From positions 1 to 30,507 of the IMG/VR virus record IMGVR_UViG_3300032225_000487: 30,507 nt of DNA; one strand, given 5' to 3'. Every line of letters begins with the position of its first letter. Position 1 is the first letter of the stretch. The translations under genes and the position numbers were made by a program. The notes under the pieces are model-generated. The model was not told the origin of the DNA. It did not search any database and saw only the letters and a list, made by a program, of their open reading frames with translations. This DNA is from a virus (Duplodnaviria > Caudoviricetes). Below, piece by piece: positions 17,307-28,318 of the stretch.

Positions 17307-18047
17307 ATGAAACTCATACCCAAAAATTGGGCTGTATTCCAACATTACAAAGACCGAAATCCACCTTGGATAAAGCTCCATCGTGAGTTTTTGAACGACA
17401 GAACTTTTATGACCTTGCCATTAGCTAGCAAGGCGCTAGCACCTTTAATGTGGTTGTTAGCATCAGAGTCAAAAAATGGTGTTTTTGATGGGTCAGTAGA
17501 TGACCTCATGTTTAGATTGCATATCACCAAGAAAGAATATGAGGATGGTGTTAAACCATTGATTGATAAGGGATTCTTTGAGATTGCTAGCGGAGTGCTA
17601 GCAGACTGTCAGCAAGATGCTAGACCAGAGACAGAGACAGAGAGAGAGAAAGAGAAAGAGACAGAGGTTAAACAAAGAACAAAAGGCTCACGCCTTTCAA
17701 CAGATTTTGATTTACCTGATTCTTGGAAAGAATTCTGCCAAACAGAACGACCTGACTTAAACCCTCAAAAGGTGTTTGACTCGTTTAGAGATTATTGGGT
17801 AGCCAAAGCAGGTGCAGCAGGTGTTAAGCTCGATTGGCAAGCCACATGGCGTAATTGGGTAAGAAACCAGAATGTTGCCAAACAGATGTTTAACAAGGCA
17901 GATGTTGTGCATCAGACAATACCTGGAAGCTCATTTCGTGATCCTGCCCTTGTTAAATTGGATGAAGACAGAATGAGATCAGCACCACCAAACCCAGAGG
18001 TTTTAGCCAGAATACGGGCAGTTTTAGGAAAAGGAAAGGTGGCATGA
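17307..18047 (+). CDS. Phage replication initiator (replisome organiser, O-like)
   Basis: N-terminal KNW..FQHYKDRNPPWIKLH, central low-complexity linker, C-terminal FRDYW...KLDWQATWRNWVR. Start re-assigned to ATG 17307. Confidence 0.75.
   Translation: MKLIPKNWAVFQHYKDRNPPWIKLHREFLNDRTFMTLPLASKALAPLMWLLASESKNGVFDGSVDDLMFRLHITKKEYEDGVKPLIDKGFFEIASGVLADCQQDARPETETEREKEKETEVKQRTKGSRLSTDFDLPDSWKEFCQTERPDLNPQKVFDSFRDYWVAKAGAAGVKLDWQATWRNWVRNQNVAKQMFNKADVVHQTIPGSSFRDPALVKLDEDRMRSAPPNPEVLARIRAVLGKGKVA
17585..17667. repeat. Putative replication origin: four iterons plus an AG-rich tract
   Basis: TGCTAGC, TGCTAGC, TGTCAGC and TGCTAGA at 17585, 17596, 17607 and 17618 (11-bp phase), then GAGACAGAGACAGAGAGAGAGAAAGAG. 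Confidence 0.6.
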
Positions 18048-18976
18048 ATGAGTTGGCTCTTTTCGCAGGTGCTGGTGGAGGAATACTTGGCGGCAAACTC
18101 CTTGGATGGAGAACAGTCTGTGCAGTTGAGTGGGAAGCCTACCCCGCAAGCGTACTGTGCGCCCGACAAAATGACGGTTTTCTCCCGCCTTTCCCGATTT
18201 GGGATGACGTTCAAACCTTTGACGGAAAACCTTGGCGAGGAATTGTTGATGTCGTATCTGGAGGATTTCCATGCCAGGACATTAGCGCAGCAGGAAAAGG
18301 CGCAGGAATTGATGGAGAACGATCAGGTATGTGGGGAGAAATGGCACGCATCATTTGTGAAGTACGACCAAGATTCGTCTTTGTGGAGAACTCACCAATG
18401 CTCACTTCTAGGGGACTTGGACGAGTTCTCGGAGACTTGGCCGCAATGGGGTTTGATGCGAGATGGGGAGTGTTGGGAGCAGCTGACGTTGGAGCAAACC
18501 ATCAGAGGGACAGAATCTGGATTGTCGGAAAAGCTACCAACTCCGCAGTCAACAGATTACAGGAGCAAGCCAACAAGCAAATCATGGAAAGCAAAGGGTG
18601 GAGTGAATTTCAGTTTGAGCAATCCAGAGATTCAATCCAAATGGCCAACGCCAGATGCGAATTGCGGACAAAGGGGAACTCAACCAAACTGGAGTCCCAA
18701 ACGCAAGTCAGGACATTCGGCGCAGTACACAATAAATCAAGCAGTGAGAGACAAAATGTTTCCAACACCGACAGCACACAATTCCAAAGAGGGGAATTAT
18801 CCAAGCGAACAGAATCGGAATACTCCCTCGCTTGCGACTCACGCTGGTGGGAAGCTGAACCCGATGTGGGTCGAATGGCTGATGGGTTGGCCTCTGGGGT
18901 GGACAGACTTAAAGCCATTGGAAATGGACAAGTCCCACTTTGTGCAGCAACAGCATGGAGAATCCTAAGTGAATAG
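18044..18976 (+). CDS. C5 cytosine DNA methyltransferase, alpha polypeptide (no recognisable motif IX)
   Basis: Motif I FAGAGG, IV GFPCQ, VI ENS, VIII HQRDRIWIV and X RLKAIGNGQV. Confidence 0.9.
   Translation: MNELALFAGAGGGILGGKLLGWRTVCAVEWEAYPASVLCARQNDGFLPPFPIWDDVQTFDGKPWRGIVDVVSGGFPCQDISAAGKGAGIDGERSGMWGEMARIICEVRPRFVFVENSPMLTSRGLGRVLGDLAAMGFDARWGVLGAADVGANHQRDRIWIVGKATNSAVNRLQEQANKQIMESKGWSEFQFEQSRDSIQMANARCELRTKGNSTKLESQTQVRTFGAVHNKSSSERQNVSNTDSTQFQRGELSKRTESEYSLACDSRWWEAEPDVGRMADGLASGVDRLKAIGNGQVPLCAATAWRILSE
18048..18968 (+). CDS. Overlapping +1-frame beta polypeptide of the methyltransferase (motif IX plus PTP repeats)
   Basis: 306 codons open inside the MTase gene; ends in GKLNPMWVEWLMGWPLGWT (motif IX-like); LPTP, WPTP and FPTP modules. 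Confidence 0.75.
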   Translation: MSWLFSQVLVEEYLAANSLDGEQSVQLSGKPTPQAYCAPDKMTVFSRLSRFGMTFKPLTENLGEELLMSYLEDFHARTLAQQEKAQELMENDQVCGEKWHASFVKYDQDSSLWRTHQCSLLGDLDEFSETWPQWGLMRDGECWEQLTLEQTIRGTESGLSEKLPTPQSTDYRSKPTSKSWKAKGGVNFSLSNPEIQSKWPTPDANCGQRGTQPNWSPKRKSGHSAQYTINQAVRDKMFPTPTAHNSKEGNYPSEQNRNTPSLATHAGGKLNPMWVEWLMGWPLGWTDLKPLEMDKSHFVQQQHGES

Positions 18977-19235
18977 ACAAGAAGCAAACGAATTACTTGA
19001 TGAACATAAACATGGAATCAAAGCCCATTCAATCCTTGAAGTCACAAAAGCCCTCTGGATTACTAACGATCTCAGACGATTACCAAAGCACTCTAGACCA
19101 TTTAGTCAAACTGGCATCAATGAATGGATGGAAAGCTCACGCATGGCACAGAGCCAAGGAGTTGGACAACGACCCGACAGGGATATGGCGAGGAATGAGC
19201 AAAGATTTGACCAACAGGATGAAAGCAATCAATGA
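18969..19235 (+). CDS. Hypothetical protein
   Basis: GGAG RBS, GTG directly after the beta stop; stop is ATGA-coupled to the resolvase gene. Confidence 0.6.
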   Translation: MNRQEANELLDEHKHGIKAHSILEVTKALWITNDLRRLPKHSRPFSQTGINEWMESSRMAQSQGVGQRPDRDMARNEQRFDQQDESNQ

Positions 19236-19711
19236 TTTACATAGGGATTGATCCTGGTGCTGTCAGTGGTGCATTAGGCGCAGTAGATCATGATGGCAAT
19301 TACCTAGAAGCATTTGACATTGAACATAAGGACAAGCACATACTGGCTTTGGTTTTCAAGAGTCGAATTCTGAGCATTGTCGATCCCAAGATAGGGGCTG
19401 AAATCTGCATGGAACAAGTCCATTCAATGCCAAACCAAGGGGTTAGCTCTACCTTTGCTTTTGGTCGTGCCGTAGGCGTTATCAGTGCGGTTTGCGAGTT
19501 AACCCGATACCCAGTGCATCTTGTCACCCCTCAGAAGTGGAAAAAGCATTTTCATTTAACAGCAGACAAGAATGAATCTCTGGATATGGCACGATACCTT
19601 TGGCCTGAAGCTAAATTAAAGCTCAAAAAGGACATAAACAAGGCTGAAGCTCTACTGATAGCAGAATATTTAAGGCACACACTGCATGGCATATCGAAAA
19701 CACCCGAATAA
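19232..19711 (+). CDS. RuvC-like Holliday junction resolvase
   Basis: IGIDPG, E.VHSMP.QGVSSTFAFG, VTPQKWKK and AEALLIA motifs. Confidence 0.85.
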   Translation: MIYIGIDPGAVSGALGAVDHDGNYLEAFDIEHKDKHILALVFKSRILSIVDPKIGAEICMEQVHSMPNQGVSSTFAFGRAVGVISAVCELTRYPVHLVTPQKWKKHFHLTADKNESLDMARYLWPEAKLKLKKDINKAEALLIAEYLRHTLHGISKTPE

Positions 19712-20998: not shown

Positions 20999-21127
20999 TT
21001 ATTTTTTACGGTTTAACCACTGTTTAGCCTGTTTTTTGGTCTCAAACCGTCCAGATATTGGCGTATCGTGCGAACCACGCACAATAAACCAGCCGTTTAA
21101 AAGTCTATTAAAAATGATCTTAGGCAT
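20999..21127 (-). CDS. Hypothetical basic protein, 42 aa
   Basis: MPKIIFNRLLNGWFIVRGSHDTPISGRFETKKQAKQWL; overlaps the upstream stop. Confidence 0.6.
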   Translation of the reverse strand: MPKIIFNRLLNGWFIVRGSHDTPISGRFETKKQAKQWLNRKK

Positions 21128-21878
21128 AATGCACCCCTTTGATTTGAACAAATCCGTTATCTTCTTTTTTGGCCTTACCCTTAGCATATAGGGCAACAAC
21201 TACATTTTTGGGTTCGATATGCCTAACATCGGAATTATCACCGTCAACTACAGGCCATGTTCTAAAAGTACTAGGAATATCGGATTGTTTTTGAAATACT
21301 ACAGCTACACGGGAATTGTTAGGATTGGTTAACCCTTTGATCGATATCGGTTTAGGGGTAATTGCAGAGAATGAATAAGTTAGATCGTAATTCCCTGTCG
21401 TTTTCCCTGTCAAATTACGGGACGGGTGTTTAGTGTAATCATAGAATTGAACATCCGGGAATAATTGGAATAGGTTTTTGTTGTCCCATACAATTAGATT
21501 CTCATAAGGGATATCGGATGTACCGTTAGGTCTAATCAACGGAATCAAACCTAGATTCTTAGATTTTCGCTCAAATGACCAAATGTCTGCAGCTAACGAC
21601 AATAAGAATGCCTGTCGATTGTTATAAAAATAATCGGTCTTGGATTGTCTCGCTTGTTGCACTGTATTAAATGCTCCCCTACCAGCAGATTTAAGACAGC
21701 CAGCAAAGCAGCCAGCAGCCCTGGCTAAGGGACAAATTTTATGATCTGGTACTAAATAGACAATACCTGTCAGATAACCTATTTTTTCCCCTTTAACGGT
21801 CTTAGCAGAGGATTCCCCTAGAATTGTCTTATAGGTCAAACCTAATGATTTTAAAATTGTCTTGTACGGATTTTTCAC
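21120..21878 (-). CDS. Gp88-family protein (radical-SAM-like Cys triad)
   Basis: CP.....GC...C, RPNGTSDI, FYDYTK, YDLTYS and DGD..D.R motifs. Confidence 0.65.
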   Translation of the reverse strand: MKNPYKTILKSLGLTYKTILGESSAKTVKGEKIGYLTGIVYLVPDHKICPLARAAGCFAGCLKSAGRGAFNTVQQARQSKTDYFYNNRQAFLLSLAADIWSFERKSKNLGLIPLIRPNGTSDIPYENLIVWDNKNLFQLFPDVQFYDYTKHPSRNLTGKTTGNYDLTYSFSAITPKPISIKGLTNPNNSRVAVVFQKQSDIPSTFRTWPVVDGDNSDVRHIEPKNVVVALYAKGKAKKEDNGFVQIKGVHYA

Positions 21879-24270: not shown

Positions 24271-26319
24271 ATGGCAGATATGCAACAAAATCAATTTGAC
24301 GAACCTACTGAGGCTGATAAGGAATTAACAAAATTTGTTATTGACCACTGTGATCGGTGGAGAAACTATCGGGATACCAATTTCCTGTCAGATTGGGAAG
24401 AATATGAACGTATCTTCCGAGGTCAATGGGCTGATGATGATAAGACTCGTGAATCAGAACGTAGCCGTATTGTGACCCCTGCGACTCAACAAGCTGTTGA
24501 GACTCGTCACGCTGAGATCATGGAAGCTATCTTTGGTCAAGGTGACTTCTTTGATATTGAAGACAATATTCAAGACGTTAATGGCAACCCCATTGATGTT
24601 GAGATGATTAAGAATCAGTTGATGGAGGATTTCAAGAAAGACAAAATCCGCAAAGCCATTGACCAGATTGAATTGATGGCTGAAATCTATGGCACTGGCA
24701 TCGGCGAGATTGTCGTTAAGACTGAAAAGGAATACATCCCTGCAACTCAGCCGATTCCTAACCAGCAAGGTCAAGCAGCTATTGGCGTGATTGAAAGAGA
24801 CAGAATTGCTGTCAAGATCATGCCTATCAACCCTAAGAATTTCTTATTTGATCCCAATGGAACATCAGTTGATGACTGTATGGGTGTTGCTGTAGAGAAG
24901 TTCATCTCTATCCACAAGATTGTGGCTGGCATTGAGTCTGGTGTATACCGCAAGGTAGACATTGGCATTGTTGCATCTGACGAGGATTTAGAGGCAACTC
25001 AAGAAATTCAAATGTTCCAAGACCAAAAGGTCAAGCTGTTAACTTACTATGGTCTTGTGCCTAGAGAGTATTTGCAGAACTTGACTGAGAACAAGGACAT
25101 TGTTGAGTTGTTCCCTGATAGTTCAGAGGCTGAAGATTATCAGGATTTGATTGAGGCAATCGTTGTGATTGCCAATGATGGATTATTGTTAAAGGCTGAA
25201 GAAAGTCCTTACATGATGAAAGACAGGCCAATCCTAAGTTATCAGGATGACACTGTTCCTAATCGTTTGTTGGGTCGTGGCACAGTTGAGAAAGCCTACA
25301 ATATGCAAAAGGCTATGGATGCTCAAATCCGAAGCCACTTGGATTCATTGGCACTGACTACAAGCCCAATGATTGCAATGGATGCAACTCGCTTGCCAAG
25401 GGGTGCAAAGTTTGAGGTAAAGCCAGGAAAAGCTATCCTAACCAATGGCGCACCTAGCGAGATTTTGTATCCATTTAAGTTTGGTCAAACAGATCAAAAC
25501 AATCTCGCTACTGCACAGACGTTTGAGAGAATGCTATTGCAAGCCACTGGTACTCTTGATTCTCAAGGCATGGTTACTCAGGCATCTAGAGATGGTTCGG
25601 GTATGTCTATGGCGGTGGCATCCATCATCAAGAAGTACAAACGTACTCTGGTGAATTTCCAAGAAGATTTTCTTGTGCCATTCATCAAGAAAGCCGCATT
25701 CAGGTATATGCAGTTTGACCCCAACCGCTATCCCTCTGTGGACATGAACTTCATCCCGACTGCTACCCTTGGCATTATTGCTAGAGAGTACGAGCAACAG
25801 CAGTTCATTGGTTTGTTGCAGACTTTGGGGGCTGATACGCCAGTATTGCCGATTATTTTGAAAGGCATTGTGGCTAATTCCAGTTTGAGCAATAGATTTG
25901 AGATGATTGCAAAGTTGGATGAAATGATGAAACCTAATCCAGACCAACAGCAGATGCAACAAGCACAGCAACAGTTGGCAATGCAAGCGGCACAGGCTCA
26001 GATTGCTGTAAATACCACTCAAGCAGAGCAAAATCGTGCAGAGGCAACCAAGTTGATGGTTGAAGCGCAGTTAATGCCGCAAGAAGTACAAGCTAAAACG
26101 GCTAGTGCATTGACCAAAAACTTGCCGAATCAAGACGATTTAGCCTCAAAAGAGTTTGATAAGAGGGTTAAGATTGCTGAATTGATGCTTAAAGAGTCTG
26201 ATATTAAAAACAAAGCAAAAATTGTTGAATTGCAGATGGCAGACAAGCAAAATGCAAGTATGCAGATCAAACATGACTTTTTGAACAAGCTAAATACTGG
26301 ATTGAAGAACAATGGCTAA
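24271..26319 (+). CDS. Portal protein
   Basis: 682 aa after terL with a Gln-rich C-terminal barrel coil, as in P22-like portals. Confidence 0.85.
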   Translation: MADMQQNQFDEPTEADKELTKFVIDHCDRWRNYRDTNFLSDWEEYERIFRGQWADDDKTRESERSRIVTPATQQAVETRHAEIMEAIFGQGDFFDIEDNIQDVNGNPIDVEMIKNQLMEDFKKDKIRKAIDQIELMAEIYGTGIGEIVVKTEKEYIPATQPIPNQQGQAAIGVIERDRIAVKIMPINPKNFLFDPNGTSVDDCMGVAVEKFISIHKIVAGIESGVYRKVDIGIVASDEDLEATQEIQMFQDQKVKLLTYYGLVPREYLQNLTENKDIVELFPDSSEAEDYQDLIEAIVVIANDGLLLKAEESPYMMKDRPILSYQDDTVPNRLLGRGTVEKAYNMQKAMDAQIRSHLDSLALTTSPMIAMDATRLPRGAKFEVKPGKAILTNGAPSEILYPFKFGQTDQNNLATAQTFERMLLQATGTLDSQGMVTQASRDGSGMSMAVASIIKKYKRTLVNFQEDFLVPFIKKAAFRYMQFDPNRYPSVDMNFIPTATLGIIAREYEQQQFIGLLQTLGADTPVLPIILKGIVANSSLSNRFEMIAKLDEMMKPNPDQQQMQQAQQQLAMQAAQAQIAVNTTQAEQNRAEATKLMVEAQLMPQEVQAKTASALTKNLPNQDDLASKEFDKRVKIAELMLKESDIKNKAKIVELQMADKQNASMQIKHDFLNKLNTGLKNNG

Positions 26320-28318
26320 TATTCGGGAACTTATTCTCAGTATTGAATCAGATGCATTGACATTTGATGAGAAGTTAGCCGCTTTGACTCAGGTTGAGGA
26401 GACTCTTGTTGCAATGCAACAGCAAGAAGAAGATGCTGTTCAAGAGAATGTTGACTTGATTGTTGAGGCGATCAAGGTCATGCAAGAAAAAGTTGATGCT
26501 CAAGTCAATCGTATTGCTGATTTTGTGCCTGAAAAAGGTGAAAAAGGCGATAAGGGTGAACGTGGATTAGATGGTCGGCAAGGCGTAGATGGTAAAGATG
26601 GTCGAGATGGAATCAATGGTCGAGATGGTAAAGATGGTGTAGATGGTATATCGGTTATTGATGCCAAGATTGACTTTGATGGTTCACTAATTATCACTTT
26701 ATCCACTGGTAAAGAACTAAATGTTGGTGAAGTTGTTGCTCCTGACTTAGCTGAAAAGATTAAGTTAGTTACTTCTGGCGGTGCTGGTACTGTTTTGCCT
26801 AGCCAAGCAGGGAACTCAGGTAAATATCTAAAGACTGATGGCTCTGCACTTTCATGGGCGACAGTTTCTGGTGGTGGTTCTGGTACTGTTACATCGGTGG
26901 GTGGTACAGGTACAGTAAATGGCATTTCCTTATCAGGCACAGTTACTACTTCTGGAAATCTTACTTTAGGTGGTACGCTAGATTTATCTTCACCTCCTAC
27001 AATTGGTAATACTGCCGCAAATACAGGCGCATTTACCACATTGAGTGCATCATCTACTGTTAGTGGCACAGGATTTAGCACATATTTGGCATCTCCCCCT
27101 GCAATTGGTGGTACAACTGCAAGCACAGGTAGATTCACAACAGTTACATCCACAGTAGCAACAGGTACTGCACCATTTACAGTTACATCAACAACCGCAG
27201 TGGCAAATTTGTCTATTGGTGGTAATGCGGCAACAGTAACCAATGGCGTATATACAACTGACACAGGAACAGTCACCAACACAATGTTGGCGGGTTCTAT
27301 TGCAAATGCAAAGTTAAGTAATTCCACAATTACGTTTGGTTCAACTTCTCAAGCACTTGGCTCAACTGTTTCTGGTTTGAGTGGTGTAACTGTTGACAAT
27401 GCTGCTATTGGTGGAACAACACCAGCGGCTGGAACATTTACAACACTGAATCTTACTGGCACAACCAATCAAGTTTCTAGCGTGGCGGTGTCATCTGACC
27501 CTGCCGCCCCTAGTGCTGGTAATTTAAAGACATTTGCTAAAACTATTGCGGGTGGATATACAGCACCAGCGTTTTTAAATGCTACTAATGCCTCAGTTCA
27601 GTTACAGCCAGCATTTGCTAATAAACGTATAGGAAATTTATTTCCTCAAAATAATGCCAACCCTAATATTATTGGATTAAATGCTTTTACTGGTACTATA
27701 ACGGGTGTTACTAGTGCAACAACTTCAATGTTTACTAGGGCTAATAGATTTACAATTGCTAGTACTGCAACTGCTGGTACTTTAGCTAACTATTATCAAG
27801 TTGTTGCATCCTATACACTTGGTTCTGCAACTACTCCTGCTTACGGTGGTTTTTATTTTGTTATTCGTTTTGGAATTGCTGATACGGTTGCATCGCCAAG
27901 GTCATTTTTTGGTGTATCAAGCTCAGTAGGCGCACCAACAAACGTAGAGCCATCTACCCTGACAAACTCAATTGGTGTTGGACAAGGCGCGGCTAATACA
28001 AATTTGTTTGTTTACTATGGTGGATCTGCGGCTCAAACTCCTATTGATTTGGGTGTAAATTTTCCAACAGGAACATCAAATACTGATTTGTACGAATTGA
28101 CTTTGTTTGCGCCACCAACATCTAACAATACAGTTTATTACCAAGTTATAAGATTAAACACAGGTAATGTGGCATCTGGTACTTTGACAGGTACAGCGGG
28201 AACTGTATTGCCATCAAACACAACATATTTAGCAATCAGAAATTGGCGAACCAATAACGCTACTGCATCTGCGGTAACCATTGCTATGGCGGGTATGTAT
28301 ATAGAAACGGATTACTGA
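26312..28318 (+). CDS. Collagen-repeat fibre protein (second fibre)
   Basis: Coiled-coil N-terminus, about 12 Gly-X-Y triplets (GEKGDKGERGLDG...), T/S/G-rich shaft with AIGGTT repeats, C-terminal beta domain. Confidence 0.75.
   Translation: MANIRELILSIESDALTFDEKLAALTQVEETLVAMQQQEEDAVQENVDLIVEAIKVMQEKVDAQVNRIADFVPEKGEKGDKGERGLDGRQGVDGKDGRDGINGRDGKDGVDGISVIDAKIDFDGSLIITLSTGKELNVGEVVAPDLAEKIKLVTSGGAGTVLPSQAGNSGKYLKTDGSALSWATVSGGGSGTVTSVGGTGTVNGISLSGTVTTSGNLTLGGTLDLSSPPTIGNTAANTGAFTTLSASSTVSGTGFSTYLASPPAIGGTTASTGRFTTVTSTVATGTAPFTVTSTTAVANLSIGGNAATVTNGVYTTDTGTVTNTMLAGSIANAKLSNSTITFGSTSQALGSTVSGLSGVTVDNAAIGGTTPAAGTFTTLNLTGTTNQVSSVAVSSDPAAPSAGNLKTFAKTIAGGYTAPAFLNATNASVQLQPAFANKRIGNLFPQNNANPNIIGLNAFTGTITGVTSATTSMFTRANRFTIASTATAGTLANYYQVVASYTLGSATTPAYGGFYFVIRFGIADTVASPRSFFGVSSSVGAPTNVEPSTLTNSIGVGQGAANTNLFVYYGGSAAQTPIDLGVNFPTGTSNTDLYELTLFAPPTSNNTVYYQVIRLNTGNVASGTLTGTAGTVLPSNTTYLAIRNWRTNNATASAVTIAMAGMYIETDY

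Follow-up and report, generated by a model that had tools for sequence, protein, structure and literature searches.

A probable two-chain C5 methyltransferase of a phage with exchangeable cassettes in an overprinted reading frame

Relationship to known C5 methyltransferases

The published two-chain C5 methyltransferases named in PMC2836561 and PMC3404938 are M.EcoHK31I and M.AquI. M.EcoHK31I originates from Escherichia coli HK31 and has the target YGGCCR (Lee, Kam and Shaw 1995, as cited in these two papers), and M.AquI is composed of two subunits and has the target CYCGRG (PMC3404938). A different design is found in the multispecific C5 methyltransferases of the Bacillus phages SPbeta (MtbP), SPR, phi3T and H2, which according to PMC8936443 carry target-recognition domains (TRDs) in tandem. 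Here we describe a related locus on the virus record IMGVR_UViG_3300032225_000487 (30,507 nt or 30.5 kb, the whole of which is called the window), which also carries terminase, portal, Sak/YqaJ recombination, replication and lysis genes. At this locus an open reading frame (ORF) of 310 amino acids, alpha (18044..18976), overlaps fully with a second ORF of 306 amino acids in the +1 frame, beta (18048..18968). From the sequence comparisons below we consider it likely that the locus encodes a two-chain C5 methyltransferase, with alpha as the catalytic chain and beta as the supplier of motif IX and of three exchangeable target-recognition cassettes. Such an enzyme would combine both known designs, and its recognition function has probably shifted to the overprinted chain.

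An EcoHK31I-type gene was located with a primer from the PMC2836561 supplement and is present in 81 of 5426 E. coli genomes. A primer search of plasmids gave chance matches only, and the PADLOC model PDLC03270 gave no matches at 1e-50 in 301 enterobacterial genomes, where the controls were silent too. The EcoHK31I-type locus used for comparison (L259) encodes an alpha chain of 309 amino acids and a +1 beta chain of 176 amino acids starting at codon 104, with an adjoining endonuclease gene. Similar to the window, M.EcoHK31I has motifs I-VIII and X on alpha, and a nested +1 beta whose motif IX overlaps the run-up to motif X; motif IX lies 22 codons ahead of the motif-X core in the window and 24 in the M.EcoHK31I comparison. 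The start of beta differs, since it lies 4 nt after that of alpha in the window, where beta extends over the entire gene, and at alpha codon 104 in M.EcoHK31I. Furthermore, M.EcoHK31I is found beside a restriction endonuclease, whereas no endonuclease gene lies beside the window locus, an orphan in a phage replication region.

The C5 methyltransferases of the Bacillus phages resemble the window enzyme in being phage orphans with tandem, mutually different units of 30-50 residues between motifs VIII and IX. Unlike the window locus, which uses two frames, they are single chains in one frame (the +1 frame of MtbP has 41 stops), and the cassette library in the window family is far larger than theirs. 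A motif split like that of M.AquI is seen in relatives that have motifs I-VIII on alpha and cassettes, IX and X on beta (the loci L072, L129, L240 and L243, and the phages phiBT1, Rebeuca, TaylorSipht, Ryadel and Ovechkin), whereas the window keeps motif X on alpha. PHROG 363/1008, N15 gp58, K1H ORF29/ORF28 and Diva gp49/gp50 belong to the same family and exist as database labels only. The nested beta is annotated in K1H and Diva ('g49 internal gene'), and only alpha is annotated in N15, Seifer, Harrison, S9-5 and ABMM1. An earlier reading of the window, made from the sequence alone (the sequence-only reading), had supposed that gene callers would miss beta; this holds where only alpha is annotated, for example in N15, and fails for PHROG 1008, K1H and Diva. 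The beta ORFs of N15, Harrison, Diva and MoxS-R1 begin 50-65 codons downstream of the alpha start. Searches confined to an open-access library found no paper that describes dual coding over the full gene length or shuffled cassettes for this family, and passages from papers on Tweety, Gordonia phages, P. larvae phages, out-of-frame genes of E. coli and GeneTack contained nothing on this layout.

Organization of the overlapping reading frames

All features of the locus lie on the plus strand. Alpha matches PF00145 over residues 4-247 (E 1.3e-32), the match stopping at position 242 of 324 in the profile, and phrog_363 (E 6.8e-69); matches to HhaI and HaeIII cover residues 1-170 only. The catalytic part (18044..18532), supported by motif matches and codon-position diversity, contains motif I (18059-18079), motif IV (PC, 18260-18280, with the catalytic Cys76), motif VI (ENS, 18383-18397) and motif VIII (RxR, 18500-18520), numbered for both chains according to the usual convention. 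It is followed by an open but unconstrained stretch without a conserved column, called filler (18533..18844), and by a C-terminal block WW..EP ... DRLKAIGNGQV (18845..18976), which overlaps beta motif IX and contains motif X at 18902-18934. In an alignment of 54 sequences the catalytic motifs are almost invariant, and W269, E272, G281, A291 and G293-P298 are invariant columns. As had been noticed from the sequence alone, motifs I, IV, VI, VIII and X are all present on alpha and motif IX is not: no motif-IX-like window was found in alpha, where the best score is 10.1 as compared to 34.1 for motif IX of EcoHK31I beta.

Beta is composed of a leader, three cassettes and motif IX. It matches phrog_1008 (E 6.9e-31) and gave no match with Pfam, NCBIfam or PADLOC models, so that the PF00145 search proposed earlier for both frames succeeds for alpha and fails for beta; a Pfam search of nine beta-type chains, most of them with IX and X, likewise gave no PF00145 match. 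The C-terminal block LNPMWVEWLMGWPLGWT (18855..18905) confirms that beta ends in a motif IX-like sequence, sharing 7 of 17 residues with motif IX of EcoHK31I beta. On EcoHK31I beta, this block reaches a family score of 34.1, which ranks 1 among 160 windows (next best 9.7) and was equalled by 1 of 3000 shuffles. The leader block WPQWGLMRDGECWEQLTLE (18438..18494, beta residues 131-149) is homologous to residues 37-55 of M.EcoHK31I beta and ranks 1 among 157 windows of that chain. None of 400 synonymous resamples reached its score, but the best came to 28.6 against 28.8, which means that alpha codons explain part of the leader match. Deletions in EcoHK31I beta at the leader-block residues weakened assembly, according to PMC2836561, and the block is likely an alpha-binding segment. 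A hidden Markov model (HMM) of the beta family aligned both the leader block and motif IX with EcoHK31I beta (15.5 bits), a score reached by none of 1000 synonymous resamples of EcoHK31I alpha. This direct homology and the conservation of both frames support the M.EcoHK31I-type heterodimer that the sequence-only reading had proposed.

The double start (18032..18050) consists, as read from the sequence, of two Shine-Dalgarno (SD)-like elements, AGGA (18032-18035) and AGGTGG (18037-18042), followed by ATGAATG. AGGA is separated by 8 nt from ATG 18044 and AGGTGG by 5 nt from ATG 18048. The TGA of the upstream gene (18045-18047) overlaps the alpha ATG and abuts the beta ATG, so that re-initiation could serve both starts; the single shared ribosome binding site assumed earlier is thus one possible reading beside separate SD-like elements combined with re-initiation. 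The double start xTGAATGAG is found in 152 of 189 distinct loci.

That both frames remain open from the twin ATGs was confirmed, and codon resampling shows that this goes beyond chance expectation. With the alpha protein fixed, the expectation for the +1 frame is 9.3 stops, and none of 5000 resamples was stop-free; with the beta protein fixed, 28.6 stops are expected in the alpha frame and again 0 of 5000 were stop-free. The +1 frame of 15 other window genes has 6.0 stops per 100 codons. Conservation was examined in loci selected by alpha alone, the best 80 of 598 viral loci; of the 81 loci including the window, 65 were distinct and passed the filters of the stop-codon analysis. In 79 of the 80 loci no stop interrupts beta between its start and the end of the EWLM (motif IX) block; the other locus (L067) is cut off. 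The third frame has 6-28 stops. The frequent stops in frame 2 of homologs that had been named as evidence against the proposal were therefore not found. Among these loci 74 have the window layout, one (L072) has motif X on beta, three (L028, L048 and L051) have a broken alpha and two are ended by contig ends. Selection by beta gave an intact alpha with motif X in 73 of 80 loci from viruses and in 72 of 80 from genomes. Six loci (L028, L048, L051, L128, L171 and L207) show stops or no motif X in alpha while beta is intact through motif IX; such loci may be pseudogenes, assembly errors or three-piece variants.

The two frames are constrained in different parts of the gene. Alpha is the dominant frame over motifs I-VIII, where its three codon positions show a diversity of 0.12/0.06/0.26 (60 loci). 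Over the cassettes the diversity by beta codon position is 0.13/0.11/0.43; here beta is the frame under protein-level selection and the alpha stretch is filler, as supposed earlier. No stops occur in the filler of the window, where 11.7 are expected (mean expectation 7.4 across 61 loci), yet the filler contains 6, 1, 3 and 3 stops in four distinct loci in which motif X has moved to beta. This indicates that the role of the filler is to carry the ribosome to motif X.

The family is large and widespread. The beta profile matches 29,380 clusters of 50% identity at E<=1e-3 and 15,174 at 1e-10. The 35-residue motif IX region matches 380 phage records at E<=10, and the 60 matches listed fall mostly at the positions of genes named DNA methylase. 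Relatives occur in phages of E. coli, Klebsiella, Salmonella, Acinetobacter, Rhodobacter, Paenibacillus, Streptomyces and Mycobacterium.

Cassettes of the beta chain

The three xPTP module starts seen earlier at 18534, 18642 and 18759 were confirmed. Cassette 1 (LPTP, 18534..18641) has 36 amino acids and is of a type found in 8 of 189 loci, cassette 2 (WPTP, 18642..18758) has 39 amino acids and a type found in 26, and cassette 3 (FPTP, 18759..18854) has 32 amino acids and a type found in 35. The consensus of cassette starts is [WLF]PTPxAxD. Because xPTP is free at the third position of its codons, the conserved anchor is a motif of the protein and not a site in the DNA. A site-specific recombination core at the cassette junctions was considered and ruled out by these free third positions.

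An automatic split of the 189 distinct loci gave 438 modules of about 139 types, 54 of them recurrent. There are 144 cassette arrangements among 188 loci, with 0-5 cassettes per locus, and longer relatives have 5-12 modules. The same cassette type never occurs twice in one of the 188 loci, whereas in the first 72 regions 7.6 repeat-bearing loci are expected under free permutation (P 0.0002) and 3.4 if first, middle and last positions are kept (P 0.0185). The modules are thus different cassettes from a shuffled library and not copies of one repeat, which corrects the earlier description of expandable repeats. Viral pairs with 90-93% identity in the catalytic DNA have the same arrangement in 3 of 236 cases and no common cassette in 152; the turnover of cassettes by gain, loss and exchange greatly outpaces the divergence of the catalytic DNA. 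Protein-level selection is also visible in a contig from another study (run X3) with the same three cassettes and 13 differences, 12 of which are listed: of these 12, 11 leave the beta protein unchanged and 11 alter alpha. The beta chains P0153, P0154 and P0151 have 12, 7 and 7 cassettes, with motif X on the same chain.

In four sequencing runs the summed contig depth is 10-50x higher over 18027-18514 and 18881-18941 than over the cassettes, and contig joints cluster near cassette borders (18525-18533, 18642, 18756 and 18845). The depth drop and the border joints indicate that these samples contain numerous relatives whose arrays differ. This material consists of assembled contigs; RNA-labelled runs contain the stretch at shares of 0.06-0.20, one that was aligned is probably DNA, and the runs provide no evidence of expression.

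Movement of motifs between chains and single-chain relatives

Motifs IX and X are distributed over the chains in several ways. Seven of 12 hand-picked named phages have the window layout and three have IX and X on beta; in JKSyngboy IX and X are on alpha and the cassettes on beta, and in Estave1 the cassettes, IX and X are all on the catalytic chain. Further layouts are those of phiBT1 and Rebeuca, with IX and X on beta, and of S9-5 and ABMM1, which are of the window type. The 33 actinophage loci found with Estave1 (itself and close relatives included) comprise 24 with IX and X on the catalytic chain, and in 23 of the 33 that chain contains 1-5 cassettes between VIII and IX, with a short nested beta alongside. 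Of the 42 cassette sequences from actinophages, several belong to types that also occur on beta chains. Since the single-chain cassettes sit between VIII and IX, the slot of the recognition domain, recognition appears to reside on beta in the window, unlike in EcoHK31I. Single-chain fusions were absent from the 273 proteins obtained with beta queries and were found only via named phages. In the loci L260-L292, L252 and L257 all motifs are on the catalytic chain, and a short nested beta, which consists of the leader and 0-4 cassettes and lacks IX, is retained; this suggests that cassettes may be supplied in trans from this short beta.

A model of the single chain L263 has a predicted local distance difference test score (pLDDT) of about 95 in the core and of 78-97 for residues 301-390, which include IX and X, with a predicted template modelling score (pTM) of 0.68. 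The chain thus models as a C5 methyltransferase in which both motifs are placed with confidence, and its best structural match is HhaI (E 5e-15). A VIA-align search of the beta model against 48,161 chains gave none at Z>=2 and is uninformative in view of the low confidence of the model.

Additionally, an HNH endonuclease ORF (PF01844, E 0.0017; phrog_1271, E 1e-9) occupies the third frame immediately downstream of motif IX at L072:3795-4148, on the same contig as L094. Through this insertion beta comes to share its frame with motif X, and alpha stops prematurely. The same arrangement is present at L129 and in proteins such as P0072, P0119, P0132 and P0136, and long inserts between IX and X recur in 13 of the 150 top beta relatives with X on beta. 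The out-of-frame HNH gene of PMC11855218 resembles the case of L072.

Proposed mechanism and alternative explanations

In the proposed two-chain enzyme, both chains would be made in about equal amounts from the twin starts 4 nt apart, helped by the two SD-like elements and by the upstream stop between the ATGs. Beta may dock on alpha via its leader block and motif IX, and each cassette could function as a target-recognition unit comparable to the tandem domains of the Bacillus phage enzymes. The enzyme would then methylate several sequences in replicating phage DNA and block host restriction enzymes. The lack of an adjacent endonuclease and the presence of a replication protein and a RuvC-like resolvase among the neighbours would be in keeping with such an anti-restriction orphan role. 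Recombination between co-infecting phages, using the conserved flanks and the xPTP codons as regions of homology, would reshuffle the cassettes; as long as motif X stays on alpha, only cassettes that keep the alpha frame open would be acceptable. The putative localization of recognition in the PTP modules, as suggested from the sequence alone, is supported by selection, shuffling and the single-chain position. A wider proposal, for which our confidence falls just short of even, is that a very large phage family shares a library of well over 100 DNA-reading cassettes of 30-50 residues in an overprinted frame, with one target each and located on either chain or acting in trans, so that cassette swapping would retune anti-restriction methylation.

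Several observations weigh against this assignment. The TRD of EcoHK31I was predicted to lie on alpha (PMC3404938), whereas alpha of the window has filler in the variable region and the cassettes are on beta; conversely, EcoHK31I beta lacks xPTP cassettes. Among 36 four-fold sites of alpha over the leader only 4 are nearly invariant, so most of the beta leader is weakly constrained. Motif IX of beta was not detected by an HMM and a position-specific scoring matrix of Bacillus-type motif IX (120 MtbP relatives): the EWLM block is the best window of these models in just 21 of 189 loci, 64% of shuffles score as high, and the conserved arginines of the Bacillus-type motif are absent. The beta profile has no significant match to SPbeta MtbP or to PDB chains. 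Cassettes and filler are mostly below pLDDT 50 in the L263 model, and beta alone was modelled by AlphaFold at pLDDT 57.8 and pTM 0.22. Alpha is broken and beta intact in 3 of 80 alpha-selected loci. The loci are mutually related and are the top matches of the scans, and the cassette numbers depend on automatic splitting and on a threshold, with at least one spurious difference (L023/L027). Finally, cassette starts resemble the T-L-anchored segments of the Bacillus enzymes also outside the anchor itself (T-L-x-A-x-D-x-K-G; -1.0 vs -4.2 +/- 0.16, 0 of 300), but this likeness is partly circular because both sets are anchored on T-L/T-P. The position between motifs VIII and IX is stronger evidence for a putative recognition role than this sequence likeness.

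Of the alternatives, the one to be taken most seriously, although we judge it unlikely, retains the two-chain enzyme and denies independence of the cassettes: either only the one adjacent to motif IX would read DNA, the others being a silent reservoir, or the cassettes would bind proteins and not DNA. Position bias fits this, as types D, F and H are always last and type C is almost always first; DNA reading by cassettes also lacks proof from fold or sequence, and the TRD predicted on EcoHK31I alpha points the same way. However, the first and middle types C, E, G and I show a third-position excess like the last ones (0.33-0.43 vs 0.03-0.15), the common types A and B are found at positions 1-3, repeats of a type are avoided, single chains hold cassettes in the VIII-IX slot and arrays reach 12 cassettes. 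Recoding is improbable. A +1 shift after motif VIII would yield a chain of I-VIII, cassettes and IX, with X reached by a second shift or supplied in trans and the beta ATG incidental. Natural single chains do exist, and in 185 loci of type E the sequence after motif VIII contains a run of 5 or more in 26 and a slippery-like hexamer in 19, but the window gene has no run of 5 or more anywhere and no slippery heptamer at the junction. A shift would moreover leave unexplained why beta lacks stops alongside alpha motifs I-VIII, for which the average expectation is 5.4 (61 loci), why a Met is found by the alpha start in 75/75, 71/71 and 66/68 loci, and why the alpha filler, which the shifted product does not need, is kept open. 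EcoHK31I functions from separate plasmids, as stated in PMC2836561. Together these points make recoding less likely than twin-start translation.

Still more improbable is a genuine beta chain beside an alpha that acts alone or is catalytically irrelevant, beta being a DNA-binding or anti-restriction factor. The three loci with kept beta and broken alpha, and the 24 of 33 actinophage loci where a short nested beta persists beside a catalytic chain with all motifs, could be read in this way. Alpha lacks a motif-IX-like window, though, motifs IX and X move between chains and are both present in nearly all complete loci, and the catalytic motifs are nearly invariant. The notion that an open +1 frame reflects chance or is a side effect of alpha codon use could draw on the missing Pfam match of beta and on leader conservation that is partly forced by alpha; it is already contradicted by the stop-codon resampling, by beta being open in 79 of 80 loci and by the codon-position diversity that marks beta as the constrained frame over the cassettes, and we give it almost no weight.

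If the two-chain assignment is correct, the design of M.EcoHK31I would change from an oddity into one of the commoner phage methylase designs, given the 29,380 beta clusters. Alpha-only annotations would then describe an enzyme without motif IX and without its recognition part, so that specificity is not predictable, and a cloned, recoded alpha is expected to be inactive. The gene would be a natural case of 300 codons of dual coding, with a dominant frame that switches along the gene. With the cassette library it could become possible to assign DNA targets directly to short peptides and to engineer multispecific methylases, and the history of phages versus restriction might become readable from sequence. 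If each cassette adds one target, the family would represent a natural programmable, multispecific writer of 5-methylcytosine that is mostly invisible to annotation.

Neighbouring genes and further overlapping frames

The locus is surrounded by genes for the replication protein and the RuvC-like resolvase and by two short ORFs (Pfam/PHROG matches). The beta TAA (18966-18968) abuts GTG 18969, as had been noticed, but the assignment of this GTG to the next gene is less clear: among the fetched loci the ORF from GTG 18969 has a homolog in 1 (L164), against 14 for the 18997 frame. The downstream ORFs 18969-19235 and 18997-19251 (88 and 84 amino acids) overlap in frames 0 and +1. L164 has the two frames open over ~60 codons, and a similar-looking pair is found at L051; the downstream pair is possibly a second small dual-coding gene.

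Elsewhere in the window, antisense ORFs on the minus strand are found within the collagen-repeat gene (26500-27327, 275 amino acids) and within the portal gene (25534-26031, 165 amino acids). A GP88-family gene (PF17338, E 8e-36) lies on the minus strand at 21120-21878, between the replication and packaging regions.

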